Shown: positions 1 through 10,011 of the stretch, piece after piece
Layout: each line of letters starts with the position of its first letter
Position numbering within the stretch: position 1 is the first letter of the stretch
Virus record (IMG/VR): IMGVR_UViG_2802429253_000016
Location: 1 to 10,011 of that record
Source: a virus
Taxonomy: Duplodnaviria > Heunggongvirae > Uroviricota > Caudoviricetes
Length of the DNA stretch: 10,011 nt
Reading direction: 5' to 3' (one strand)
Position numbers and translations under genes: made by a program
Notes under the pieces: model-generated
The model's input: only the letters and a program-made list of their open reading frames with translations
Database searches by the model: none
Told to the model about the DNA's origin: nothing

Positions 1-582
1 TTAAACTCTGCGCTGAAATTTCTTTTTTTCATTGGAGCACCTGTGTTGTTCTGAGGTGAGCATATCACCTCTGTTCAGGTGGCCAAATTCAGTGTGCCAC
101 TTCAGATTGAACGCAGCAGCAAGACGGCTGGCGGTATAGTTAATCCCCTCGTTGCGTGCTTCCGCACGTACTTCAGCCAGGAAAGCATCGGTGGCTGGGG
201 TTTGCGGCATCCTTCCGTCTATTGCGCAGATATACGCATCAGATAGTTCATCCTGCTCGCCATCAAACACGTAGCAACTCTGTACGATAAATTTATTCAG
301 CCCCGCATTCTCCGCCGCAAGCGCAGCAAGATTAGTCTCCAGCTCTGCAATGCGTTTGCTTTGGGCTTCCCGTTCATCCAGCAGTGCCAGCACGGTAGCC
401 GGATTGGCTGCTGCTATGAATCGCTTATTGGCGCGATTATCTGGTCCTGAGCATGATGCTATGTAGTAATTTGCGTTCAGTCCGGCATCAGCAATTACCC
501 CATAGTAATCATCAGAACACCATTCGCCAGGGGTTGCATTTTCTGCCGCCATTCGCAGTGCCTGGTAATTAATGTTGCTCAC
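1..582 (-). CDS. Phage accessory protein, tentatively ead/Ea22-like (coiled-coil middle, conserved NATPGEW and NPATVLALLD segments)
   Basis: Six-frame ORF 1..609. The preferred start is GTG at 580-582, preceded by AGGAGG (589-594) with a 6-nt spacer; the ATG at 609 has no SD. Stop TAA at 1-3. Family assignment is from memory and unverified. Confidence 0.55.
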   Translation of the reverse strand: MSNINYQALRMAAENATPGEWCSDDYYGVIADAGLNANYYIASCSGPDNRANKRFIAAANPATVLALLDEREAQSKRIAELETNLAALAAENAGLNKFIVQSCYVFDGEQDELSDAYICAIDGRMPQTPATDAFLAEVRAEARNEGINYTASRLAAAFNLKWHTEFGHLNRGDMLTSEQHRCSNEKKKFQRRV

Positions 583-874
583 TGGTTGCCTCCTGAAAAA
601 TAACTGCATGCCCCAGCTTCTCCGCCAGTGCCAGTTCTGCCTTAGCGCCTGCTGACCGCTGCCAGCCTTTCAGCATGTAAATCGCATCCACACAACGAAT
701 CATTGCCATGCAAATATCCATGTAGTGTGGCTGTGTCAGTCCGTCCGGAAGTACTGCCGGACTTAAGACGGTATGCCCTTCCCGTTTCAGTTCCTCTTCC
801 GCCTTGTGGAACGCCTCACGGTTGAAATTTTTATACCCGGTCATCGGACCAGCGATATAAACCCTCACCCTCAC
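569..874 (-). CDS. DUF4406-like / nucleoside 2-deoxyribosyltransferase-like small protein (101 aa)
   Basis: ORF with GTG start at 872-874 overlapping the upstream stop (GTGA), AGGAGG at 883-888. N-terminal YIAGPMTG motif and a GW-x-S-x-GA segment are typical of the DUF4406/deoxyribosyltransferase-like fold. Assignment from memory. Confidence 0.6.
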   Translation of the reverse strand: MRVRVYIAGPMTGYKNFNREAFHKAEEELKREGHTVLSPAVLPDGLTQPHYMDICMAMIRCVDAIYMLKGWQRSAGAKAELALAEKLGHAVIFQEATSEQH

Positions 875-1287
875 GCCATCACCTCCTGAAAATTACCCTG
901 ATAAAACGCCAGCACACGCTGCATAACCTTGCTTTTCCGGCACTCGCGACAGATTATGTTCTGACGTCTGTCGTAGCGGCGTATCTCTCCATCTGGTAAT
1001 GAATAAATCAGGTCAGGATCGCTCTTTTTCTTCACCGCCGCTTTCGACATCTTTTCGATGGCTTTTATCCAGTCCTTACGCGCCTGCGCTGAAGGGAATA
1101 TTCCATACCCTGAACCATATACAACACCACTGGCTACCAGCTCTTTCGTCAGAACTTCTATCAGATGTCTCGTCGCCCCAATTTCATTTTCCAGTTGTTT
1201 ACGCGTTTTCCGACCATCTCTGCGTACCAGTTCCACAATGCGCGCCTTCACTTCTTCCCGCTGTTCGGAAGTAAAAACTTTTGCCAC
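871..1287 (-). CDS. Hypothetical phage protein (138 aa), basic, possible N-terminal winged-helix and a C-terminal CxxC
   Basis: ORF starting with GTG (1285-1287) 4 nt after AGGAGG (1292-1297). It is co-oriented and tightly packed with the replication gene; no family recognised. Confidence 0.55.
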   Translation of the reverse strand: MAKVFTSEQREEVKARIVELVRRDGRKTRKQLENEIGATRHLIEVLTKELVASGVVYGSGYGIFPSAQARKDWIKAIEKMSKAAVKKKSDPDLIYSLPDGEIRRYDRRQNIICRECRKSKVMQRVLAFYQGNFQEVMA

Positions 1288-1327
1288 AAGTCCTCCTGAA
1301 AATTACCTCATGATCTGAAATAAACAC

Positions 1328-2275
1328 TTACCCCCTGAAGCCCGGCGGAATTTCGGTATCCGGTTCAGAAATGTGATTCACGCAACGCTGTACAGGCGAA
1401 CGCCCCAGACGAATAACCAGCTCATCCCATTTTTCGCGAAGCTTTGACGGGCTCATGACGTTTTTTACCCAGAATGGATCCCGCTGTACCCGACCAAACA
1501 TTTCGCAAATTTGTCTGTGAGTTCTGCCATCCAGCATCCGCATTGTGCGCACATCATTGGCCCATGCAGTCCAGTTGGGTTCTTTCGGTCGCATGATTTC
1601 GCCATCATCGCTGGCAGCCTGCTCGTAAAGACTCACGATTCGTCCCCAGATCCACTGCGCACACGCTAAATCTTCCTGGCTACCCCACTGGCGTTTTTTC
1701 GCACTGAACACAACCGCGTCAGGGTGTCGGGTTAAAAAATCCTGTTCAGCCGTCTGCGAGTCCGGTTGCGAAGCTTCCGGACGAAAAGATCTTTTATCTG
1801 ACGGATCAGGTTTTAATACTGACGGATCGGGGCCAACCATCGCCCCCCTATCCGGCTGTTTTTTATCAATGGTTGATCCATCAAAATTTGAGGGGTCAAC
1901 CGTTGAGGGGGCAATATTTGACGGGTCATTTTTTGCCTGGCTAATTTTTCTTTTCGGTTTATATGCCTCACGCGCCGCCGCTGCTGCTGCTTCTAGTTTT
2001 TCCACATTAAGACGGTAGATATTGCTTACATTACGCCCACCGACCTTACGTTCCTCCTTCGTCAGCCAGCCGTTCTTTTCCAGTTCCGCTATCGCAGCTT
2101 TAACCGTTGATTCACTCTTTGCCCCAATCTGACGACGAATGGTCTCCACTGCAGGCCATGACACACCTTCGTCATTGCTGTAATCTGCAAGGCGAGCCAT
2201 TACTGCCACCCTGGATAAGATCATGCCGGTGAAGGCGCACCCTTCCCAGACAAGACCATGAAGCTTGCTGCTCAT
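1328..2275 (-). CDS. Replication initiation protein: N-terminal winged-helix domain, iteron-encoded linker, C-terminal DnaT-like (primosomal protein I-like) domain
   Basis: 315-aa ORF with ATG at 2275 and GGAG SD. The C-terminus ...VNHISEPDTEIPPGFRG matches the DnaT C-terminal signature as recalled. The internal iteron cluster plus AT-rich tract is the same arrangement as ori inside lambda O. The N-terminal wHTH resembles phage replication proteins. Confidence 0.85.
   Translation of the reverse strand: MSSKLHGLVWEGCAFTGMILSRVAVMARLADYSNDEGVSWPAVETIRRQIGAKSESTVKAAIAELEKNGWLTKEERKVGGRNVSNIYRLNVEKLEAAAAAAREAYKPKRKISQAKNDPSNIAPSTVDPSNFDGSTIDKKQPDRGAMVGPDPSVLKPDPSDKRSFRPEASQPDSQTAEQDFLTRHPDAVVFSAKKRQWGSQEDLACAQWIWGRIVSLYEQAASDDGEIMRPKEPNWTAWANDVRTMRMLDGRTHRQICEMFGRVQRDPFWVKNVMSPSKLREKWDELVIRLGRSPVQRCVNHISEPDTEIPPGFRG
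1796..1966. repeat. Origin-like iteron cluster (TGACGGATC-type 9-mers) followed by an AT-rich tract, embedded in the initiator gene
   Basis: Direct copies TGACGGATC (1799-1807, 1820-1828), TGAGGGGTC (1889-1897), TGAGGGGGC (1904-1912), TGACGGGTC (1919-1927), with 15-bp phasing for the last three, plus an inverted copy (1875-1883, gatccatca). Followed by ttttttgcctggctaatttttcttttcggtttatat (1928-1964). They encode the repeated DPS motifs in the protein linker. Confidence 0.7.
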
Positions 2276-2298
2276 AAAAAACTCCGAACACCGTGCTT

Positions 2299-2724
2299 TT
2301 AGTGCATCACCAGGGCATTTCCCGCCGGACCACCACGATTCATCTGATTGAAACCAGCGATCGCCACTGCGACAAAATCATCAGCGTCTCTCACCAGTCG
2401 TTCCCGCGTCTCCACCAGCTCCCGAAAATAGGCTGAACTGTGGCTGCGCATTCGGGCCACCAGCAGAGGTGGCATTGCTTTTTCGATCGCTGGTAACAAC
2501 GCCTGAATTTTTTTAACCGCATCAGGGGTGTCTTTCTCCACCCAGCGGAAAATCTTCTGAGTATTGCGAGCCAGGGCTTCTGGGTGTGAATCGTCGTACA
2601 GTTCCGGAAACGTCATACCCAGTTCAAAATAAGCCCGGGTTATTTCAGCTGCCGGAACTTTTTCTCCGTCCGGATGCGCCCAGGCATTCATCGCCATGCG
2701 GATGTGCTCATGCTTGATTTTCAT
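2299..2724 (-). CDS. YdaT-like protein (CII-type regulator analogue), 141 aa
   Basis: ORF immediately downstream of the cro-like gene with a 4-nt ATGA start/stop overlap at 2721-2724, the position occupied by cII in lambda and by ydaT in Rac-type prophages. Family call from memory. Confidence 0.65.
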   Translation of the reverse strand: MKIKHEHIRMAMNAWAHPDGEKVPAAEITRAYFELGMTFPELYDDSHPEALARNTQKIFRWVEKDTPDAVKKIQALLPAIEKAMPPLLVARMRSHSSAYFRELVETRERLVRDADDFVAVAIAGFNQMNRGGPAGNALVMH

Positions 2725-2948
2725 GAATCACTCTTCCTTTCGCTCTGAGTGGTATCCTTCTTTTTGTAAAGCTCTGGGTTCAAAGATAATTTTCCCTTGG
2801 AGTATGCAGCAGCTTCCGCAGCTCTCCCTTTCGGAACTATTTCACCGGGGCGCTTACGCCACATGTAAATAGCTTCGCGGGTTATCCCATAAAAATCAGC
2901 GACCCTCTGAACAGAGCCAAAAAACTGAACAAGTTCATCAACTCGCAT
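2721..2948 (-). CDS. Cro/DicC/YdaS-like small HTH regulator (75 aa)
   Basis: First gene of the leftward operon, divergent from the repressor. SD AGGAGG (2954-2959) 5 nt before ATG at 2948. Small, basic, HTH-like N-terminus. Confidence 0.75.
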   Translation of the reverse strand: MRVDELVQFFGSVQRVADFYGITREAIYMWRKRPGEIVPKGRAAEAAAYSKGKLSLNPELYKKKDTTQSERKSDS

Positions 2949-3044
2949 TTCACCCTCCTAAAATCTAAGTATTTTTAGATTACAGGATAATTTTTTTTAG
3001 GTCAATGCGATCTAAAATAATTTATATTCAACTCGCGGGAGAAA
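2949..3044. promoter_or_regulatory. Divergent immunity control region (oR-like) with 18-bp palindromic operators and pR/pRM-type promoters
   Basis: Operator ATCTAAGTATTTTTAGAT (2963-2980, perfect 6-6-6 palindrome) and ATCTAAAATAATTTATAT (3010-3027). On the minus strand TTGACC (3005-3000), a 17-nt spacer and TAATCT (2982-2977) form a candidate pR overlapping the first operator. TATATT at 3023-3028 is a candidate pRM -10. Confidence 0.6.
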
Positions 3045-3692
3045 ATGATGGAAAGCCTTGGCATCAGGCTTAAGAAACTCAGAAAAGATAAGGGACTCAC
3101 CCAAGTAGAACTGGGTAAGCTTTCAGGCGTGACTGGGGTTACTATAGGGTACTGGGAGAAAGATCTAAACGAACCCGGCAGCAAAGCTCTAAGTAAGTTA
3201 GCCCAAGCATTAGGAACTACTGAGTCCTATCTCCTGTATGGAGTATCGTCTCCTGAACTATCTTTTGTGCAGAGCAATCCAGGCACCAAGATCCCCTACT
3301 TTTCGTGGGGTGACGCGATTTCTTTCCTAATCTTAGAAGGAGAGAAAACAATGGGAAATGTCGATAGGATCACCACATTCTTTGATGTAGTGGAAGGTGA
3401 TTTTGCCGTTTCAATGCCTGATGACACTATGCATAACCCCTCAGGGTCGCCAAGTATCCCAGTTGGTGCCACTGTGATCCTAAGACCAGGAGAAAGTTAT
3501 AAAAATGGCAGTATCGTCGCTGTAATAGTTCCAGATCCTCTTACAAATGAACCGTCTATGACTATAAAAAAATTAGTTATTGATGGAAAACTTGTGTATT
3601 TAAGCCCTCTCAATCCGCGCTATCAATCATCCTTGCTTACGCCAGAGTGTAAAATTGTTGCCGTAGCAAAAGGTGTACAGTTCAACCTATAA
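3045..3692 (+). CDS. CI-type phage repressor: N-terminal XRE-family HTH plus C-terminal S24 (LexA-like) autopeptidase domain
   Basis: 215-aa ORF. N-terminus has an HTH (LTQVELGKLSGVTGVTIGYWE). C-terminus has VSM (Ser nucleophile context) and TIKKLVIDGKLVYLSPLNP, aligning with lambda CI GNSM and FKKLIRDSGQVFLQPLNP (Ser/Lys dyad). The second ATG at 3048 has better SD spacing (GGGAG 3037-3041). Confidence 0.9.
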   Translation: MMESLGIRLKKLRKDKGLTQVELGKLSGVTGVTIGYWEKDLNEPGSKALSKLAQALGTTESYLLYGVSSPELSFVQSNPGTKIPYFSWGDAISFLILEGEKTMGNVDRITTFFDVVEGDFAVSMPDDTMHNPSGSPSIPVGATVILRPGESYKNGSIVAVIVPDPLTNEPSMTIKKLVIDGKLVYLSPLNPRYQSSLLTPECKIVAVAKGVQFNL

Positions 3693-3713
3693 CCCTGCCA
3701 TGTTCTTGAACTT

Positions 3714-3740
3714 AAGGTCGGTTATGCCGACCTTTTTTTT
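3714..3740 (+). terminator. Rho-independent terminator downstream of the repressor gene
   Basis: Stem AAGGTCGG (3714-3721), loop TTATG, CCGACCTT (3727-3734), followed by TTTTTT (3735-3740). Confidence 0.75.
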
Positions 3741-3759
3741 AAATTAATTTAGATTCCTC

Positions 3760-3788
3760 TTGACTATAAAACTAAATACTTTTAGATT
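3760..3788 (+). promoter_or_regulatory. pL-like promoter with overlapping operator (oL-like)
   Basis: TTGACT (3760-3765), 17-nt spacer, TAGATT (3783-3788). Operator AACTAAATACTTTTAGAT (3770-3787) has the same 6-6-6 architecture as the oR sites. Confidence 0.5.
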
Positions 3789-3970
3789 TATTGCATGCCA
3801 ACCCATCCCGTCCCCACAGAATGCAGGGCAATACTTCGAGTTACCAGGCAGTGGTCAGGGGTTAAGTAGCCAGCCCGAGGCGTAAGAACATGACGGCAGG
3901 GTTCAACTTTAATAACTATGCAGCAGGTTTTTGTTCCGCTACCCCGGCGTTAAGGGGAAATGAGGTCAAC

Positions 3971-4126
3971 ATGGATACTATCGATCTTGGCAACAACGAA
4001 TCTCTGGTGTACGGCGTGTTTCCCAACCAGGACGGCACATTCACCGCGATGACGTATACCAAAAGCAAAACGTTTAAAACCGAAAATGGTGCCCGTCGCT
4101 GGCTGGAAAGAAACTCAGGTGAGTGA
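3971..4126 (+). CDS. ydfA: YdfA-like small protein (DUF1391), 51 aa
   Basis: Internal ATG at 3971 with GAGG (3962-3965) 5 nt upstream. The product MDTIDLGNNESLVYGVFPNQDGTFTAMTYTKSKTFKTENGARRWLERNSGE matches the Qin prophage YdfA as recalled. The longer ORF from 3890 lacks an SD. Confidence 0.75.
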   Translation: MDTIDLGNNESLVYGVFPNQDGTFTAMTYTKSKTFKTENGARRWLERNSGE

Positions 4127-4127
4127 T

Positions 4128-4256
4128 ATGGATTTCGACACAATCATGGAAAAGGCTTACGAAGAATACTTCGAAGGCCTTGCCGAAGGCGAAGAAGCTC
4201 TCAGCTTCAGTGAGTTTAAACAGGCGCTTTCCAGTTCGGCAAAATCTAACGGCTGA
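4128..4256 (+). CDS. ydfB: YdfB-like small protein, 42 aa (not in the supplied ORF track)
   Basis: ATG at 4128 two nt after the ydfA stop. It encodes MDFDTIMEKAYEEYFEGLAEGEEALSFSEFKQALSSSAKSNG, with stop TGA at 4254-4256. Length and position match Qin ydfB as recalled. Confidence 0.65.
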   Translation: MDFDTIMEKAYEEYFEGLAEGEEALSFSEFKQALSSSAKSNG

Positions 4257-4285
4257 TAAGCGAAACAGCACCGCGAGGAATCAGT

Positions 4286-4501
4286 ATGCAGAAACCAGAA
4301 CCCATCATCATCGCACCAGGCTATACCGATGATGAAATTTACGAATGGATGTGCGGGAAGATACGCGCCATTAATGACCTGAAGCAGGCTGCTGACTATA
4401 AAGAGCGCCTCTCTAAAGAACTGGCGTCAGCGGAGCAGGATATTACCACTCTGGCAAAAAGCGCGGCATTAAACGTTTCACGAGTGAATGAAAACTACTG
4501 A
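4286..4501 (+). CDS. ydfC: YdfC-like small protein, 71 aa
   Basis: ATG at 4286 with GAGGAA (4275-4280) 5 nt upstream; third gene of the dicB-type operon. Confidence 0.8.
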   Translation: MQKPEPIIIAPGYTDDEIYEWMCGKIRAINDLKQAADYKERLSKELASAEQDITTLAKSAALNVSRVNENY

Positions 4502-4516
4502 CTGATGAGGTTGACG

Positions 4517-4846
4517 ATGGAATTTAAAGATTTACCAATACCATTCCAGGAAATGGCAGCGAATATAGTTCGTTCCCAACTGGCGACTCTTGACCTGAGT
4601 ACCGTAGAAAAAGAAACCATCGATAATATATCCGGTAACGTGCGTCGCGCCTTTATCGGGTTGTACGAAGAGAAGCAACTCTCTGATAACCAGGATTTGC
4701 ATGAAAAATACTTCCTGGAATTAATGAACATCATTGATAAGGGGTTTGGCTTGTTAATGAAAAAGAAAGGGATTCGAATAGAACCCCTTGAAAATTACTT
4801 TGCAACAAAAAGCATTAATTCTTTTGATTCAAAACAAGAGAATTAA
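4517..4846 (+). CDS. Hypothetical protein (109 aa) in an AT-rich insertion; function unknown
   Basis: ATG at 4517 with GAGG (4507-4510) and a 6-nt spacer (the ORF track starts at 4505). Markedly AT-rich relative to flanking DNA. Its 3' end overlaps the convergent ORF by 32 nt. Confidence 0.5.
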   Translation: MEFKDLPIPFQEMAANIVRSQLATLDLSTVEKETIDNISGNVRRAFIGLYEEKQLSDNQDLHEKYFLELMNIIDKGFGLLMKKKGIRIEPLENYFATKSINSFDSKQEN

Positions 4847-5090
4847 TAACAGATTTAACATGCTCTTTCTCATGATTGAAGCTCTCATGATTGAAAGCGC
4901 CGGGTTGAAGCGAGTCGATATAATCAACAAGACTCTGTCGTACGACTTCATTTTTATCCATAACAGATGCAAGAAATGAAATTGCTAAAAGAGTTATATC
5001 ACTACGCGCCGCAGCATGCTGCAATGCTTTATCAAAATTATTAATCTGGCGTATCAGGGAGTTAATGATTTCATTATTTTCAGTCGACAT
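4815..5090 (-). CDS. Hypothetical protein (91 aa), antisense-oriented within the pL operon; function unknown
   Basis: ATG at 5088-5090 preceded by AGGAGGG (5096-5102) with a 5-nt spacer; this RBS context (AGGAGGGTGAAATG) is identical to that of the cro-like gene. The longer ORF to 5168 has no SD. AT-rich. Confidence 0.5.
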   Translation of the reverse strand: MSTENNEIINSLIRQINNFDKALQHAAARSDITLLAISFLASVMDKNEVVRQSLVDYIDSLQPGAFNHESFNHEKEHVKSVINSLVLNQKN

Positions 5091-5421
5091 TTCACCCTCC
5101 TGAGGGTTGGTGATTAAGGAGTTCTCCACGGGTGAGGTGGAGTGCGTGCGCCGGACACGGGTGAGCATCCGGCACTGACAGTTTACTGAAAGGATATATC
5201 CCTGAAAAGTCAGGGCATAACGCGAAAGCGCACGGCGAAGTTCTTCTGTCTATACGGTGTCGTTAAATTTAATTCGACCGTGCGCTTCCGGTTGTGGCAC
5301 TCCGCGAAATGGCGCGGCGGTAAGTATGGCGGGGTTATTCCTTCCCCGTTGAGGACACCGGGTTGTCAGGTTGACCATACGCTTAAGTGACACCCCCGCT
5401 GCAACGCCCTCTGTTATCAAT

Positions 5422-5477
5422 TTTCTGGTGACGTTTGGCGGCATCTGTTTGCCCATGAACTGATGCCCGCCCTTTTT
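5422..5477 (+). ncRNA. dicF: DicF-like small regulatory RNA with intrinsic terminator
   Basis: The 5' segment TTTCTGGTGACGTTTGGCGG matches the DicF 5' end as recalled. Hairpin GGCGGCATC (5437-5445) / GATGCCCGCC (5462-5471), then CTTTTT. It sits between ydfC and dicB, as in the Qin dicB operon. Confidence 0.7.
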
Positions 5478-5479
5478 AA

Positions 5480-5631
5480 AGTGAATTTTGTGATGCGGTG
5501 AATGCGGCTCAGCGCACGCGGAACAGTTAAAACCAAAAACAGTGTTATGGGTGGATTCTCTGTATCCGGCGTTAATTGTTAACTGGTTAACGTCACCTGG
5601 AGGCACCAGGCACCGCATCACAAAATTCATT
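5480..5631 (+). promoter_or_regulatory. Long-range RNA stem (about 20 bp) enclosing about 110 nt between DicF and the dicB RBS; candidate RNase III processing or translational control structure
   Basis: 5482-5500 tgaattttgtgatgcggtg is the exact reverse complement of 5611-5629 caccgcatcacaaaattca, extendable by a G-U and an A-U pair. The 3' arm ends 5 nt before the dicB SD (GAGGA, 5635-5639). Confidence 0.5.
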
Positions 5632-5646
5632 GTTGAGGACGCGATA

Positions 5647-5835
5647 ATGGAAACGTTATTACCAAACGTTAATACGTCTGAAGGTTGTTTTGAAATTGGT
5701 GTCAGAATCAGTAACTCTGCATTTACTGAAGATGCCATTAACAAGAGAAAACACGAACGGGAGTTATTAAATAAAATATGCATTCTTTCAATGCTGGCAC
5801 GTTTACGCCCGATGCAAAAAGGATGCTGGCAATGA
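5647..5835 (+). CDS. dicB: DicB cell-division inhibitor (62 aa)
   Basis: ATG at 5647 with GAGGA 7 nt upstream. The product METLLPNVNTSEGCFEIGV...NKICILSMLARLRPMQKGCWQ matches DicB as recalled. The ORF-track N-terminal extension from 5542 is non-coding leader. Confidence 0.85.
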   Translation: METLLPNVNTSEGCFEIGVRISNSAFTEDAINKRKHERELLNKICILSMLARLRPMQKGCWQ

Positions 5836-6035
5836 ATACAGCAATTGCTCTCACTCTGACAGTTTTTCTTAATACGGGCGAGCCTGTTGACCTGGTTATT
5901 GACATTTACGGTTCAATGAAAGAATGCACGGCTGCCGCAGCGGAACAGAAAATTCCCGGTAACTGTTATCCGGTTGATAAAGTTATTCATATGGACAATA
6001 ACGAAATCCCGGCAGGACTTAAAACAGCACCGTAA
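5832..6035 (+). CDS. ydfD: YdfD-like small protein (67 aa; prophage lysis-associated protein in K-12)
   Basis: ATG at 5832 overlaps the dicB stop (ATGA). The product MNTAIALTLTVFLNTGEPVDLVIDIYGSMKEC... matches YdfD as recalled. Confidence 0.7.
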   Translation: MNTAIALTLTVFLNTGEPVDLVIDIYGSMKECTAAAAEQKIPGNCYPVDKVIHMDNNEIPAGLKTAP

Positions 6036-6115
6036 TTAATATCCGGTTTCATTTTTATATGCCAGCAATGGCAGGGATTTGTTCACCCTTAAATCTGTAA
6101 TGAGGTTAAAACAAA

Positions 6116-8590
6116 ATGAGTAAAGTCTTTATTTGCGCCGCCATTCCGGACGAACAGGCAACAGCAGAAGGCGCTAAACCTGTGGCCACTGCCATTGAAG
6201 CAGGCGACGAACGCCGGGCAAGAGCCAAATTTAGCTGGTTATTTCTGGAACAATACCCGGAAACTCAGGACTGTGCTTATAAATTTCTTGTCTGCGAGGA
6301 TAAACCCGGCATGGCCCGCCCTGCTCTCGATTCCTGGGATTCCGAATATATGCAGGAAAACCGCTGGAATGAGGAGTCGGCTTCCTTTGTTCCGGTCGAC
6401 CCTGAACCGGATACAGAAACTGTTAACTTTAATCAGTTATCTGACGACAAGCGGGCTGCTGTCCTTGTCAGGTTCGGTACACATGAAAACATCACCGTGG
6501 ATATGGTCATCAATGCAAGCGGGCTTCTCGGCGATGACGAGATGACGACTTTTGATGGACACCTCACTGAAGCAGTTATCCGGACCAGAGAAATTAACGC
6601 CATGTATCCTGAGCGTCAGACTGAGTACATCAACGATGCCAGACGTGATTTAAAACCAACAGCCAAATGGCCCGATGTTCAGGCGTATTTTCTCGAACGT
6701 AAAAAACGCATGGAAAAGGAGCGCAAAGAAGGTGGAGCATATAATTCCGTCGTCGATCTTGCCCGCGCCAGAGTCAACCGGCAAGGCACTGAAAACTCTG
6801 CAGGAAAAACTGACTCCGTAACTGCTGTCATTCGTCGCGAATACAAGCAGACATGGAAAACACTGGATGGCGAACTGGCCTACGCTCTCTGGCCTGGTGA
6901 TGTGGATGCCGGAAACGTTAACGGCAGCATCCATCGCTGGGCAAAAAATGAAGTTATCGACAACGACCGCGAAGACTGGAAGCGTATCTCGGCATCAATG
7001 CGCAAACAGCCTGATGCCCTTCGCTACGACCGCCAGACTATTTTTGGCCTTGTCCGTGAACGTCCGATCGACATTCACAAAGACCCTGTGGCACTGAACA
7101 AATACATTACTGAATACCTGACTACAAAGGGCGTGTTTGAAGATGAAGGAAGAAATCAGAGCGCAACTGATACTCTCTCGTCGCCAGTACCAGAAACTGA
7201 TGCAGTGGAAACGGCAATTCCGGACAACGAAAAAACCGAATGCAAAGTGGAAGTCGAACCATCTGTAGAGCGTGAGGGGCCATTCTACTTCCTCTTCACC
7301 GACAAGGATGGCGAAAAATACGGTCGCGCAAACAAACTTTCTGGTCTGAATAAGGCGCTGGCTGCCGGGGCTACTGAAATCACGAAAGAAGAATATTTTG
7401 CCCGCAAAAACGGCACATACTCAGGTTCACAACAAAATACTGGTGCATCTGACACGACCGCACAACCAGAGCCGGTAAAAGTTACCGCTGACGAAGTAAA
7501 CAAAATTATGCAGGCAGTCAGCCAGCCTGACGCCAATCAGTTGCTTGCTGCCTCTCGCGGAGAATTTGTTGCAGGGATTAGCGACCCGAATGATCCGAAA
7601 TGGGTGAAGGGGATTGAAACCCGCGATTCTGTGTACCAGAACCAGCAAGAAACGGAACAGAACGACCAGAAAGCGGAACAAAACAGCCAAAATGCGTTAC
7701 AAAACGAGCCAGAAACGAAACAATCCGAACCAGTAGCGCAACAAGAACCAGAAAAAACCTGCACCGCCTGCGGTCAGAGCGGTGGCGGCAACTGCCCTGA
7801 TTGTGGCGCGGTGATGGGCAACGCAACATATCAGGAAACATTCGATGAAGAGAATCAGGTTGAAGTTCAGGAAAATGATCCGGAGGAAATGGAAGGCGCT
7901 GAACATCCACACAAGGGGGACACTAGCGGCGCTCAGGACCACGCCAGCGATAGTGAAACTGGTGAGGCGGCAGATCCCTTAATTAATGTGAATGGTCATC
8001 ATAAAAGCACATCCACCAGTAGAGTGTGGTACCACCTGATGATCGACCTTGAAACGATGGGTAAAAAAAGTAATGCCCCCATCGTGGTTATTGGTGCTGT
8101 GTTCTTCGATCCGCAGACCGGGGAAATCGGGCCAACATTTTATATCGTTATCAGCCTGGTTGACGCTATGGACACGGGTGCTGTACCTGATGGTTCCACC
8201 ATCGAATGGTGGCTTGCTCAGTCCAGCGAAGCCAGATCTGCAATTTTAGTTGATCAGGTAAAACTGGTTGACGCTCTTATTCAATTTCGGGAATTCATCA
8301 ATGAGTACTCGAATGAAAAATTCGTTCAGGTATGGGGCAATGGTGCAACTTTCGACAACACTATTTTACGAACCTCGTACGAACGCCTGAACATCCCCTG
8401 CCCGTGGCGTTACTACAACGATCGCGATGTACGTACAATCGTTGAACTGGGAAAAACTATCGACTTCGATGCCAGAACAGTTATTCCATTTGAAGGCGTG
8501 CGCCACCATGCGCTGGATGATGCCCGTCACCAGGCGAAATACGTTTCAGCAATCTGGCAAAAACTGATCCCGAATCAGGCTGATTTTTAA
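6116..8590 (+). CDS. Large RecE/YdfE-like protein (824 aa) with a Q/E-rich low-complexity linker, a CxxC-x10-CxxC knuckle and a C-terminal DEDDh (DnaQ-like) 3'-5' exonuclease domain
   Basis: Single uninterrupted ORF. C-terminal motifs: Exo I MIDLETMG, Exo II WGNGATFDNTIL, Exo III RHHALDDARHQAKY. The N-terminus MSKVFICAAIPDE... resembles Qin YdfE, and the middle LLAASRGEF...CTACGQSGGGNCPDCGAVMG segment resembles RecE, both as recalled. It sits where exo/recE sits in lambdoid phages. Confidence 0.85.
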   Translation: MSKVFICAAIPDEQATAEGAKPVATAIEAGDERRARAKFSWLFLEQYPETQDCAYKFLVCEDKPGMARPALDSWDSEYMQENRWNEESASFVPVDPEPDTETVNFNQLSDDKRAAVLVRFGTHENITVDMVINASGLLGDDEMTTFDGHLTEAVIRTREINAMYPERQTEYINDARRDLKPTAKWPDVQAYFLERKKRMEKERKEGGAYNSVVDLARARVNRQGTENSAGKTDSVTAVIRREYKQTWKTLDGELAYALWPGDVDAGNVNGSIHRWAKNEVIDNDREDWKRISASMRKQPDALRYDRQTIFGLVRERPIDIHKDPVALNKYITEYLTTKGVFEDEGRNQSATDTLSSPVPETDAVETAIPDNEKTECKVEVEPSVEREGPFYFLFTDKDGEKYGRANKLSGLNKALAAGATEITKEEYFARKNGTYSGSQQNTGASDTTAQPEPVKVTADEVNKIMQAVSQPDANQLLAASRGEFVAGISDPNDPKWVKGIETRDSVYQNQQETEQNDQKAEQNSQNALQNEPETKQSEPVAQQEPEKTCTACGQSGGGNCPDCGAVMGNATYQETFDEENQVEVQENDPEEMEGAEHPHKGDTSGAQDHASDSETGEAADPLINVNGHHKSTSTSRVWYHLMIDLETMGKKSNAPIVVIGAVFFDPQTGEIGPTFYIVISLVDAMDTGAVPDGSTIEWWLAQSSEARSAILVDQVKLVDALIQFREFINEYSNEKFVQVWGNGATFDNTILRTSYERLNIPCPWRYYNDRDVRTIVELGKTIDFDARTVIPFEGVRHHALDDARHQAKYVSAIWQKLIPNQADF

Positions 8591-8654
8591 TGTTCAACCC
8601 CGGTCGTCGCCCACCAGCTATAGTGGCGGCGACCATGATTAGCGAACGACGCTC

Positions 8655-8903
8655 ATGGCAAGACTTATTCTGCTCACTGAGTGGGCAAAAGAGGAATTCA
8701 GTGAACCGGTCCCTACTCCGGGTACGTTAAGTAAATACGCTAAAGCCGGAATGATATTTCCTCTCCCCAAAAAAGTAGGAAGGCACTGGCGAGTGGATCC
8801 ACGCGCTCGCTTTGTCGGAATGGTAAACAAGCCTGAGGTGATCGCCACAGATCACCCTGCTTTGAAGAGGATACTGGAAGATGGCGCGCCCGCGAAAATA
8901 TAA
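8655..8903 (+). CDS. xis: Excisionase (Xis-like, 82 aa)
   Basis: Small basic protein immediately upstream of, and overlapping, int by 23 nt. LILLTEWAKEE...IFPLPKKVGRHWRV parallels lambda Xis LTLQEWNARQ...IFPPPVKDGREY. Confidence 0.8.
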   Translation: MARLILLTEWAKEEFSEPVPTPGTLSKYAKAGMIFPLPKKVGRHWRVDPRARFVGMVNKPEVIATDHPALKRILEDGAPAKI

Positions 8904-10011
8904 AACCGATGTTCCGGGTTTATCTCCGTATTTTGACAAAAGAAATAACAAAGTTTACTGGCGTTACAGGCATCCCATCACAGGTAAAAATCATGGACTC
9001 GGCAGTATTGACCAGAAACTGGCGGAAACCATTGCAGCAGAAGCGAACAGCCGTCTTGCCAGACAAAAAATGGAGCAAATGCTCAGTCTGCAGGAGAAAA
9101 TTATTAGTGATACCGGCGGCGCATCAACCGTTTCCATTTTTCTGAATAATTACAGAAAAATTCAACAGGAAAGATATGAGAACGGAGAAATCAAGCTCAG
9201 CACGCTGAAACAAAAAGCGGCTCCTCTCAGGGTGTTTGATGAACGTTTTGGAGCCAGGCCGCTAGATGCCATAACCGTAAAAGATGTGGTATCGGTGCTG
9301 GAAGAATACAAGGCAAAGGGACATAACAGAATGGGACAAATTTTCAGGAAGGTATTGATCGATGTTTTCCGGGAGGCTCAACAAACGGGTGATGTCCCGC
9401 CAGGCTTTAACCCGGCTGAATCGGCAAAAAAACCGCAAGTGCGGATATCAAGACAGCGACTGACTTTTGATGAGTGGATGATGATTTATAACGCAGCGGA
9501 AAAGGATGGTTACTTTTTACAGCGCGGCATGCTGCTGGCACTGATGACGGGCCAGCGTCTTTCGGATATTTGCAAAATGCAGTTTTCGGATATCCGGGAT
9601 GGTTACCTTCATGTCGAACAGCAAAAAACAGGAGCCCGGATAGCCATTCCTCTGGCTCTGCGTTGCGACAAATTAAATCTTACCCTGGGTGACGTGGTGT
9701 CATCCTGTCGTGATTACATCCTTAGTCCGTGGTTATTGCACCATCATCACGCTAAGGGGATGGGTAAGCGCGGCGGGATGGTTAAACCAGCAACGTTAAC
9801 AGTCGCATTTAAAAAAGCCCGGGATTCTGTGGATTACAACTGGCGTGCTAATGGCACGCCACCCTCTTTCCATGAGCAAAGATCTTTATCAGAACGATTG
9901 TTCAGAGAACAGGGAATTGATACCAAAATTTTGCTGGGCCATTCGAATCAAAAAATGACCGATATTTACAACGACGCACGCGGTAAAGAGTGGAAAAAAC
10001 TGGTTGTTTGA
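8881..10011 (+). CDS. int: Lambda-family tyrosine integrase (376 aa), apparently intact
   Basis: Collinear with lambda Int. N-terminal arm-binding region (YFDKRNNKVYWRYRHPITGK), TGQRLSDI (Arg), HEQRSLSERLF (His, Arg), LLGHSNQKMTDIY (His, Tyr nucleophile), and a C-terminal GKEWKK tail. Stop TGA at 10009-10011. Confidence 0.95.
   Translation: MARPRKYKTDVPGLSPYFDKRNNKVYWRYRHPITGKNHGLGSIDQKLAETIAAEANSRLARQKMEQMLSLQEKIISDTGGASTVSIFLNNYRKIQQERYENGEIKLSTLKQKAAPLRVFDERFGARPLDAITVKDVVSVLEEYKAKGHNRMGQIFRKVLIDVFREAQQTGDVPPGFNPAESAKKPQVRISRQRLTFDEWMMIYNAAEKDGYFLQRGMLLALMTGQRLSDICKMQFSDIRDGYLHVEQQKTGARIAIPLALRCDKLNLTLGDVVSSCRDYILSPWLLHHHHAKGMGKRGGMVKPATLTVAFKKARDSVDYNWRANGTPPSFHEQRSLSERLFREQGIDTKILLGHSNQKMTDIYNDARGKEWKKLVV

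Follow-up and report, generated by a model that had tools for sequence, protein, structure and literature searches.

The 10,011-nucleotide (nt) window analysed here (positions 1 to 10,011 of the IMG/VR virus record IMGVR_UViG_2802429253_000016, Caudoviricetes) holds that part of a lambdoid prophage which comprises replication, immunity and early-left functions, including a CI-like repressor gene and, behind the early-left promoter pL, an operon with the division-inhibition genes dicF and dicB. We read the region, with a probability of roughly 0.65 for the explanation as a whole, as the immunity and early-left module of a lambdoid prophage of the Qin/Rac type, common in E. coli, in which RecA-stimulated self-cleavage would not inactivate the repressor and the pL transcript would open with a conserved structured leader. 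All the objects that an earlier note on this DNA describes are present, in an arrangement often met in E. coli. The novelty is modest: CI-like repressors that form a clade with an apparently degenerate S24 site and control a common dicBF prophage, an allele of the small RNA (sRNA) DicF that seems to lack ftsZ complementarity, and a putative, unannotated, covarying leader RNA common to very many prophages.

Over positions 2650-6200 the window is 91-95% identical to many E. coli chromosomes, and E. coli TUM1880 shows the identical layout, adjoining tRNA-Ser/mtfA. Of 5426 complete E. coli genomes, 474 contain the immunity region (2950-3930) with a coverage of 80% or more; the identity is 99% or higher in 465 records. 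Downstream of the promoter the Qin-type order ydfA-ydfB-ydfC-dicF-dicB-ydfD is present under repressor control; upstream, the DicA (short Gifsy-type helix-turn-helix, HTH)/DicC pair of the Qin operon is replaced by a repressor of 214 amino acids (aa) with an HTH and an S24 fold. As is usual among lambdoid phages, the immunity module appears to have been swapped, a DicA-type for a CI-like one that brings its promoter and most of the leader with it, because homology to K-12 Qin begins only ~45 nt upstream of the ydfA start. Two records labelled as phages, vB_EcoS-689R5 and vB_EcoM-606R7, encode the same repressor; they were considered as evidence of inducibility and set aside, since 606R7 (the one inspected) carries flanking host mtfA and yersiniabactin genes and looks like a prophage extracted from a genome.

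The repressor and its peptidase site

The fold and architecture of the repressor are of the CI type, as the earlier note had proposed in setting it apart from DicA. Pfam matches were obtained to HTH_3 (47.8 bits) and Peptidase_S24 (PF00717, 41.2 bits against a cut-off of 23.3). An AlphaFold (AF2) model with a predicted local distance difference test (pLDDT) value of 82.8 was closest to full-length lambda CI (3bdn, Foldseek E 2e-9), to lambda CI fragments containing the cleavage site, and to LexA; the N-domain of the model compared with P22 C2 at 36% identity and a template modelling (TM) score of 0.97. The protein corresponds to a cluster of 506 member sequences (P0001) that carries the name 'LexA family transcriptional regulator [E. 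coli]'. Its identity to this cluster is listed as 100%; the representative retrieved differs from the window protein by one residue.

The catalytic machinery is not of the CI type. The repressor was aligned by MAFFT with lambda CI and E. coli LexA, the latter two taken from genome records. Thr127 (codon 3426-3428) occupies the column of the nucleophile, Ser149 in lambda CI and Ser119 in LexA, and the surrounding motif reads DDTM instead of GDSM (canonical G-D/N/M-S-M). A phmmer alignment to structures of the lambda CI C-domain likewise set 'favsmpDDTMhnpsgs' opposite 'fwlevegNSMtaptgs'. In the scissile column, where lambda CI has Ala111-Gly112 and LexA Ala84-Gly85, the window protein has Ala90-Ile91 (3315-3320), neither Ala-Gly nor Cys-Gly; the strand reads PYFSWGDA-ISF in the window, PVISWVQA-GQF in relatives, VQA-GMF in lambda and VAA-GEP in LexA. 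Lys174 (3567-3569) is kept in the column of Lys192 (lambda CI) and Lys156 (LexA), and is invariant in a TxKKL motif.

Both departures recur among the closest relatives. The 13 closest homologue clusters (49-100% identical) come from E. coli, Salmonella, Yersinia, Sodalis and Symbiopectobacterium, and in all 13 the residue after the Ala (P1') is Ile, Met, Thr or Val. One cluster has no C-terminal domain, which leaves 12 in which the nucleophile could be scored; DDTM was found in 11 of these, and the motif pattern was unmatched in the remaining one. The next 107 clusters form a sister clade (40-45% identity, 208-213 aa) with GDSM in 107 of 107 and QAG in 105, one further cluster having QAR and one a site motif that the pattern missed. 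That the sister clade keeps both motifs, with two exceptions, argues that their loss is clade-specific and not an alignment artefact. The Thr clade also has an insertion of 5-7 residues (PDPLTNEPS-like) at about residues 163-169 (window 3480-3560), just ahead of the Lys-bearing strand; it is absent from the Ser-containing sister clade, lambda CI and LexA.

Changing either the nucleophile Ser or the P1' Gly alone blocks self-cleavage, as known from non-inducible (Ind-) mutants of LexA and lambda CI. Entries of the Protein Data Bank (PDB) include G85D and S119A forms of LexA, which we take to be non-cleaving. RecA-stimulated self-cleavage of the window repressor is unlikely because both changes occur together in it and across its clade, with Thr for the nucleophile Ser and Ile (or Met, Thr or Val in relatives) for the P1' Gly. 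The repressor is neither a demonstrated nor a predicted autopeptidase, and the alignments argue for a clade of S24-fold pseudo-peptidase repressors, whose C-domain would now serve dimerisation and cooperativity only.

A Thr-Lys pair working as an altered dyad, by slow cleavage, at another bond or with a partner other than RecA as trigger, seems very unlikely to us. DDTM and the Lys are invariant in the clade, where a dead site might drift, and the insertion ahead of the Lys strand is clade-specific; the cleavage-site strand, however, carries bulky P1' residues, the conservation is equally explicable by structural roles of buried residues, and no member of family S24 is known to us to use Thr as its nucleophile. 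The earlier note had attributed to the protein a full LexA-like autopeptidase domain, cleaved under activated RecA during the SOS response, so that DicF, DicB and the rest of the pL operon would be directly SOS-inducible. The complete S24 fold and the aligning Lys174 survive from that proposal, and the clear purifying selection on the C-domain across the clade and the 'LexA family' name would suit it; the Ser nucleophile and the Ala-Gly site do not survive, a Ser that fails to align having been named beforehand as the outcome that overturns the claim. With either change alone sufficient to block cleavage in LexA and lambda CI, a substituted P1' position in every clade member having the site, and both motifs retained in the sister clade (two exceptions), we regard direct SOS cleavage as highly improbable.

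Derepression of DicF and DicB would instead need an antirepressor, as in the DicA/Rem, Gifsy and 186 systems, or spontaneous switching of the Cro type. In K-12 Qin, repression by the short Gifsy-type DicA is lifted by the antirepressor Rem, whose gene lies between ydfU and hokD (PMC10448788, PMC3121763), and Gifsy-type repressors such as DicA can be linked to SOS via LexA-controlled antirepressors (PMC3121763). The contrast drawn earlier between this repressor and K-12 DicA is thus softer than it had appeared: the type of repressor does differ, but a DicA-type repressor can be tied to SOS as well. A scan for the LexA box CTGT-N8-ACAG and near-consensus variants of it gave no match in the window, and none in the TUM1880 locus (L001, 12.6 kb) or a prophage record of 38 kb (L006); scanning three further loci gave one weak box only, in a Yersinia locus. 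The 'rem slot' of TUM1880 encodes a 130-aa protein with no Pfam match that falls in PHROG family phrog_16082, of unknown function; it was rejected as an antirepressor, being missing from a second prophage with the same repressor (SJ2D, at potC). One Yersinia member of the clade lies in a prophage with an ANT/pRha gene in its pR operon.

DicB and DicF halt cell division, and they also change metabolism and sensitivity to phages. The trigger of dicBF decides when hundreds of E. coli strains, including sequence type ST131 and relatives of enterohaemorrhagic E. coli (EHEC), filament or change phage receptors, and the database name 'LexA family' invites the wrong inference that SOS-triggering antibiotics directly derepress the operon.

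The pL leader and transcription towards int

Scanning the 10 kb window for the pattern ATCTAA-N6-TTAGAT gave four sites only, all in the two regulatory regions (Table 1). These are probably the operators of the repressor, and their layout is the standard OR/OL one. The operator at 3770-3787 overlaps the spacer and the -10 element of pL, the only sigma-70-like match on the plus strand between cI and ydfA; its transcript presumably starts at about 3795. The terminator of the repressor gene showed a weak sroD-like Rfam match, a matter of terminator resemblance only.

As predicted from its sequence, the first ~100 nt of the pL transcript fold into a conserved hairpin, behind which lie a ribosome-binding site and a short open reading frame (ORF); the whole is termed H1. 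The hairpin has three tiers (P1, P2 and P3, ~3805-3862) and the apex C-AAU-ACNNCGA-GUU-A (3829-3843). It is followed by UAAGUAGCC, a 3-bp hairpin GCC-AGCCCGA-GGC with the Shine-Dalgarno (SD) sequence GAGG (3877-3880), a variable 4-nt spacer, GAAC and the AUG at 3890. In the mini-ORF that begins there, SD-N9-AUG and the first three codons (MTA or MKA start) are conserved; length, frame and stop vary, from 3 to ~30 codons. Rfam gave no match to the leader, either at gathering scores over the whole window or at E up to 10 over 2600-6300, and a literature string search for the conserved sequences of the element returned nothing relevant in the libraries searched. The window and the related E. coli loci L001, L006 and L007 yielded no antisense partner for the apex loop.

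The element is widespread. Positions 3793-3930 recur at 90-100% identity in about 3700 of the 5426 E. coli genomes, and K-12 itself has a copy in Rac (L007 3001-3102) between racR and ydaG, where the CJ236 and MG1655 annotations are blank. When copies from different prophages were aligned, promoters and operators upstream were unrelated and similarity began just after the -10 element; the 67 copies whose upstream sequence was long enough fell into at least 26 promoter/operator types. Species-representative genomes and viral contigs were scanned with a pattern, and nhmmer was run next; divergent copies came from Pectobacterium, Serratia, Symbiopectobacterium, Winslowiella, Superficieibacter, Phlomobacter and, in large number, Arsenophonus. 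BLAST placed a further copy in the early region of the T7-like Serratia phage Kaonashi (L012 2473-2576), where a host-type promoter immediately precedes it and a boxA-like CCGCTCTTTAATA lies downstream.

Folded singly by minimum free energy (MFE), nearly all of 26 divergent copies gave the same three-tier hairpin and apex. In a structure-blind MAFFT alignment 79.1% of cells were paired, versus 30-40% when the 3' partners were slid by 1-3 columns, and double-change cells numbered 104 versus 21-27 in the slid controls. Compensatory changes were seen in 16 of 23 pairs, a covariation score reached by 0 of 500 shuffles, and in 19 of 23 pairs in a model-fitted alignment of 47 copies, the structure having been derived from the same sequences that were used for these counts. 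Conserved U-G pairs at the apex fit an RNA of the plus strand. RNAalifold run on the raw MAFFT alignment gave a poor consensus, as helix lengths differ, and was replaced by the per-sequence folds and a hand-specified structure.

A second small hairpin, H2, lies just upstream of the ydfA SD and is the only part of the leader common to K-12 Qin. Two mutually exclusive pairings can be drawn for it, CCCC/GGGG or CGCU/GGCG (CGCU-ACCCC-GGCG), and compensatory variants of both were visible by eye in other genera (CCGC/GCGG, GCCG/CGGC, GCCAG/CUGGC and CACC/GGUG). The E. coli forms, including that of K-12 Qin, have GTTCCGCYA and a small GC hairpin in the nut-equivalent place, before the SD of the first gene.

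The many Arsenophonus copies (L029, L035, L094, L065 and others; e.g., L035 1391-1494 and 3371-3475) show H1 in other company. A canonical boxA (CGCTCTTTAACA) follows in most of them and a lambda-like boxB (TCGCTGAAAAAGCGA) in several, and at least three have an N-like arginine-rich ORF behind the element; in Symbiopectobacterium H1 is likewise followed by a canonical boxA, with N-like arginine-rich ORFs downstream. In some Arsenophonus copies the AUG has become AUA, as expected for decaying prophages.

The window itself is without such elements. Neither an N-family match in Pfam or PHROG nor an arginine-rich (K/R-rich) N-terminus was found in ydfA, ydfB, ydfC or ORF113, so the absence of an N-like protein between pL and dicF, claimed earlier, stands, as does the ydfA-like nature of the first pL gene. 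The boxA pattern CGCTCTT(T)A had no match in 3795-3970, its matches elsewhere being at chance level, and H2 is a GC hairpin with an 8-nt loop, not a GNRA-like pentaloop. The leader is therefore free of a boxA/boxB pair, as had been noted, but it is not empty, given the conserved structured RNA. The statement 'no N, no nut' holds, yet it is already true of the well-studied K-12 operon, which likewise is without N and boxA. Published Northern blots of K-12 showed two transcripts, one of 1146 nt that stops at dicF and one of 1608 nt that extends through ydfD, and none longer. Since the 1608-nt transcript passes dicF with no N, the DicF terminator is leaky without it, and passage through this terminator in the window would be partial read-through, as measured in K-12. 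With the longest detected K-12 dicBp transcript ending after ydfD, how transcription of an intact phage reaches the exonuclease, xis and int was rightly raised as a question and is a legitimate one.

We propose with low confidence that the leader cassette may protect and/or process the 5' end of the transcript and keep the leader translated, which would limit early decay or Rho-dependent termination. An extension that we rate as unlikely is that H1 may be a new, widespread class of promoter-proximal phage RNA at the 5' end of early host-polymerase transcripts, common to lambdoid prophages of many Enterobacterales and a T7-like Serratia phage and acting on host transcription or RNA-decay machinery (anti-Rho, antipausing, or an RNase III/RNase E gate with a mini-ORF), letting N-less operons of the dicBF type reach xis/int; if true, this would explain how such operons are expressed through to these genes. 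Two identities were considered and dropped. H1 as a stand-in for nut was rejected, since it coexists with boxA, boxB and N-like ORFs in other genera, and an AgvB/AsxR-like anti-sRNA, prompted by the CA-rich 5' arm, was rejected because those RNAs are encoded at the pR' moron site.

H1 might also be a protein-independent processive antiterminator like HK022 put, with which RNA polymerase would pass the DicF terminator on its way to xis/int. It begins at about +1 of pL, as putL does, in an operon without N; it is conserved with strong covariation across at least 26 immunity types, and it is found behind an early host-type promoter in the T7-like Serratia phage as well. Against this, no similarity in sequence or model to the put sites of HK022 or HK639 was detected: the covariance model R1 built on H1 had no match in the pL regions of HK022 and HK639 or in lambda, T7 or K-12 Qin, and a comparison with T7 R0.3 revealed no H1 copy. 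Moreover, H1 precedes boxA in Arsenophonus and Symbiopectobacterium, with boxB and N-like ORFs in several Arsenophonus copies; K-12 Qin has no H1, yet reads through dicF; and Rac has H1, yet its kilR is described as silenced by Rho (PMC4150792). We therefore consider a put-like function quite unlikely. That the conservation merely reflects the recent spread of a mosaic DNA module, or a gene for a small protein, is very doubtful: the E. coli copies are indeed 90-100% identical, an SD-AUG ORF exists and in the window is fused in frame to ydfA, and the folding energy is unexceptional, but the divergent copies of other genera keep the helices by compensatory changes (16-19 of 23 pairs, 0 of 500 shuffles), the peptide beyond three or four codons is unconserved in sequence, length and frame, and the hairpin lies upstream of the ORF.

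Several points weigh against the overall reading of a non-cleavable repressor and a functional leader RNA. The rule of the LexA-box scan was strict, and among E. coli loci with the immunity region it covered two (L001 and L006); the comparison of two prophages with this repressor gave no consistent antirepressor candidate. Thr could in principle act as a nucleophile, and the strict DDTM with the retained Lys leaves room for residual or altered catalysis. The energy of the hairpin is ordinary (z = -0.02 for 3797-3866; z = +1.81 for the whole leader), and the 17-nt core AAGTAGCCAGCCNGAGG served as the search pattern for most of the distant copies, so that its conservation is partly forced.

As the leader hairpin is present in most E. 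coli genomes, including K-12 Rac, it is directly testable in a standard laboratory strain, and it could be relevant to how cryptic prophage operons without N evade silencing by Rho or succumb to it.

The DicF allele, the dicBF operon and flanking genes

From its 5' end to within the hairpin base the DicF allele is identical to that of K-12; the remaining 3' hairpin (5436-5475) is different and still folds as a terminator. Its Rfam score lies below the gathering score (35.9 vs 48 bits) because of this replacement. With one mismatch, the window allele is present in 290 of 5426 E. coli genomes, O157:H7 and O121 included; the K-12 allele was found in 48 of 260 loci fetched.

K-12 DicF pairs through its 3' region with the ribosome-binding site of ftsZ and through its 5' end with xylR (PMC5069750). 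In a crude energy test, RNAduplex against ftsZ -60..+60 gave -40.8 kcal/mol for K-12 DicF, with 15 of 300 shuffles as good, and -31.8 kcal/mol for the window allele, with 204 of 300 shuffles as good. By this test the ftsZ complementarity of the window allele appears not to exceed chance. The RNA had been described earlier as an ftsZ-targeting sRNA; a DicF-like allele is indeed there, but an energy no better than that of shuffles, together with the replaced 3' hairpin, leaves that label unsupported for it. The targets of the 5' seed are more likely to have been retained.

The other genes of the operon are those expected, and dicB is intact. PHROG 751 is 70 positions long, of which YdfA covers 20-70, and a long form of YdfA is annotated under a wrong name in the phage record L006. 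ORF113 and ORF117 form an insert (4505-5168) that is missing from most E. coli copies of the operon, the coverage of which falls to 79%; the convergent ORF117 has its own minus-strand terminator (4789-4767) inside the 3' end of ORF113. STnc100, which the dicF-dicB spacer resembles, has been linked with PasD sRNAs as one family in a 2026 preprint (10.64898/2026.05.13.724894).

Downstream, the order exonuclease-xis-int is annotated likewise in TUM1880 by tRNA-Ser/mtfA. The 824-aa exonuclease has its Rv2179c-like 3'-5' domain at the C-terminus and a long N-terminal region without a Pfam match, and sits where related prophages have a RecE-type exonuclease VIII. At the other end of the window, in a nin-like region, a DUF4406 protein of 101 aa (569-874, minus strand) with a PHROG match to 'nucleoside 2-deoxyribosyltransferase' adjoins a DUF977/Ren-like gene.

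Table 1. Features of the 10,011-nt window (positions count from its first letter)
Feature	Position	Strand	Evidence or remark
O-like replication gene	1328-2275	-	
YdaT/cII-slot gene	2299-2724	-	
cro-like gene, 75 aa	2721-2948	-	Divergent from repressor gene; Pfam P22_Cro 38.3 bits; E. coli homologues annotated Cro/CI family regulator
OR-type operators	2963-2980 (perfect), 3010-3027 (1 mismatch)		Between cro and repressor gene (cro/pRM); pattern scan
CI-like repressor, 214 aa	3048-3692 (alternative start 3045)	+	HTH_3 N-domain, S24-fold C-domain
Intrinsic terminator of repressor gene	3714-3742	+	AAGGTCGG-TTA-TGCCGACCTT and T run; terminator scan
OL operators	3737-3754 (2 mismatches), 3770-3787 (1 mismatch)		3' of repressor terminator (taken as 3714-3734); pattern scan
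pL	-35 TTGACT 3760-3765, -10 TAGATT 3783-3788	+	17 bp spacer; promoter scan
Promoter-proximal leader RNA H1	3794-3896	+	Covariance model R1, 97 bits
Leader mini-ORF (MTAGFNF...)	3890-3970	+	In frame into ydfA, possible 78-aa product
Second small hairpin H2	3933-3958 (L002 ~2972-2995)	+	GTTCCGCTA, then CCCC-GGCGTTAA-GGGG; just upstream of ydfA SD
ydfA	3971-4126	+	Pfam DUF1391 98.5 bits; phrog_751 and phrog_1744 matched within ydfABC; annotated alike in TUM1880 and K-12 Qin
ydfB	4128-4256	+	Annotated alike in TUM1880 and K-12 Qin
ydfC	4286-4501	+	Annotated alike in TUM1880 and K-12 Qin
ORF113	4505-4846	+	phrog_6937 (unknown-function family)
ORF117, 117 aa	4815-5168	-	Convergent with pL operon; no Pfam/PHROG match
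DicF-like sRNA allele	5423-5477	+	Rfam DicF (RF00039) match 5423-5472, 35.9 bits, E 2.3e-5
dicF-dicB spacer	5470-5679	+	Resembles Rfam STnc100, 37.7 bits vs gathering 47, E 7e-6; nearly identical to K-12
dicB	5647-5835	+	Pfam DicB 124.3 bits
ydfD-like gene	5832-6035	+	ATGA overlap with dicB stop; Pfam DUF1482 69.4 bits
Exonuclease, 824 aa	6116-8590	+	Pfam Rv2179c-like 230.7 bits
Excisionase-like gene	8655-8903	+	Pfam Exc 30.6 bits
Integrase	8881 to window end (10011)	+	

Comparison with known systems

K-12 Qin (dicC-dicA, dicBp-ydfABC-dicF-dicB-ydfDE-intQ) is the nearest known relative by gene order 3' of the promoter. From ~45 nt upstream of ydfA the two are homologous, the dicF flank, the dicB leader and dicB being ~97% identical; both have divergent cro-like and repressor genes, laid out alike, and neither has N. 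Differences concern the repressor, a 135-aa Gifsy-type DicA in K-12 and a 214-aa HTH and S24-fold protein in the window, as well as the operators, the promoter and ~130 nt of the leader, Qin being without H1. The 3' hairpin of DicF differs too, the ORF113/ORF117 insert is extra in the window, and the exonuclease, xis and int look intact here, whereas they are decayed in K-12.

Compared with lambda CI, P22 C2 and LexA, the repressor shares domain architecture, fold and the Lys general base, and as in lambda its gene is flanked by OR and OL and reads in the direction of pL; it differs in having Thr for Ser and Ala-Ile for Ala-Gly. Its predicted inability to self-cleave likens it to the Gifsy GfoR/GtgR, DicA/Rem and 186 CI/Tum systems, of which DicA/Rem also belongs to the same kind of prophage with the same dicBF cargo. 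GfoR/GtgR and DicA (~150 aa), however, have no S24 domain, and the C-domain of 186 CI is unrelated, while the window repressor keeps a degenerate S24 domain. These systems have antirepressors, whereas for the window type neither a cognate antirepressor nor a LexA box was found in the loci examined.

The put sites of HK022 and HK639 are likewise structured RNAs directly 3' of pL in an N-less lambdoid operon. Their sequences are unrelated to H1 by eye, and they form two stem-loops, in contrast to the one three-tier hairpin of H1. Lambda nutL shares the position in the pL leader, where the window, without boxA and N, has the small GC hairpin H2 in its place. With Rfam DicF (RF00039), finally, the window allele shares the single-stranded 5' seed, the flanks and a 3' hairpin of the Rho-independent terminator type, whereas the hairpin and loop with which K-12 DicF pairs to the ftsZ ribosome-binding site are replaced.

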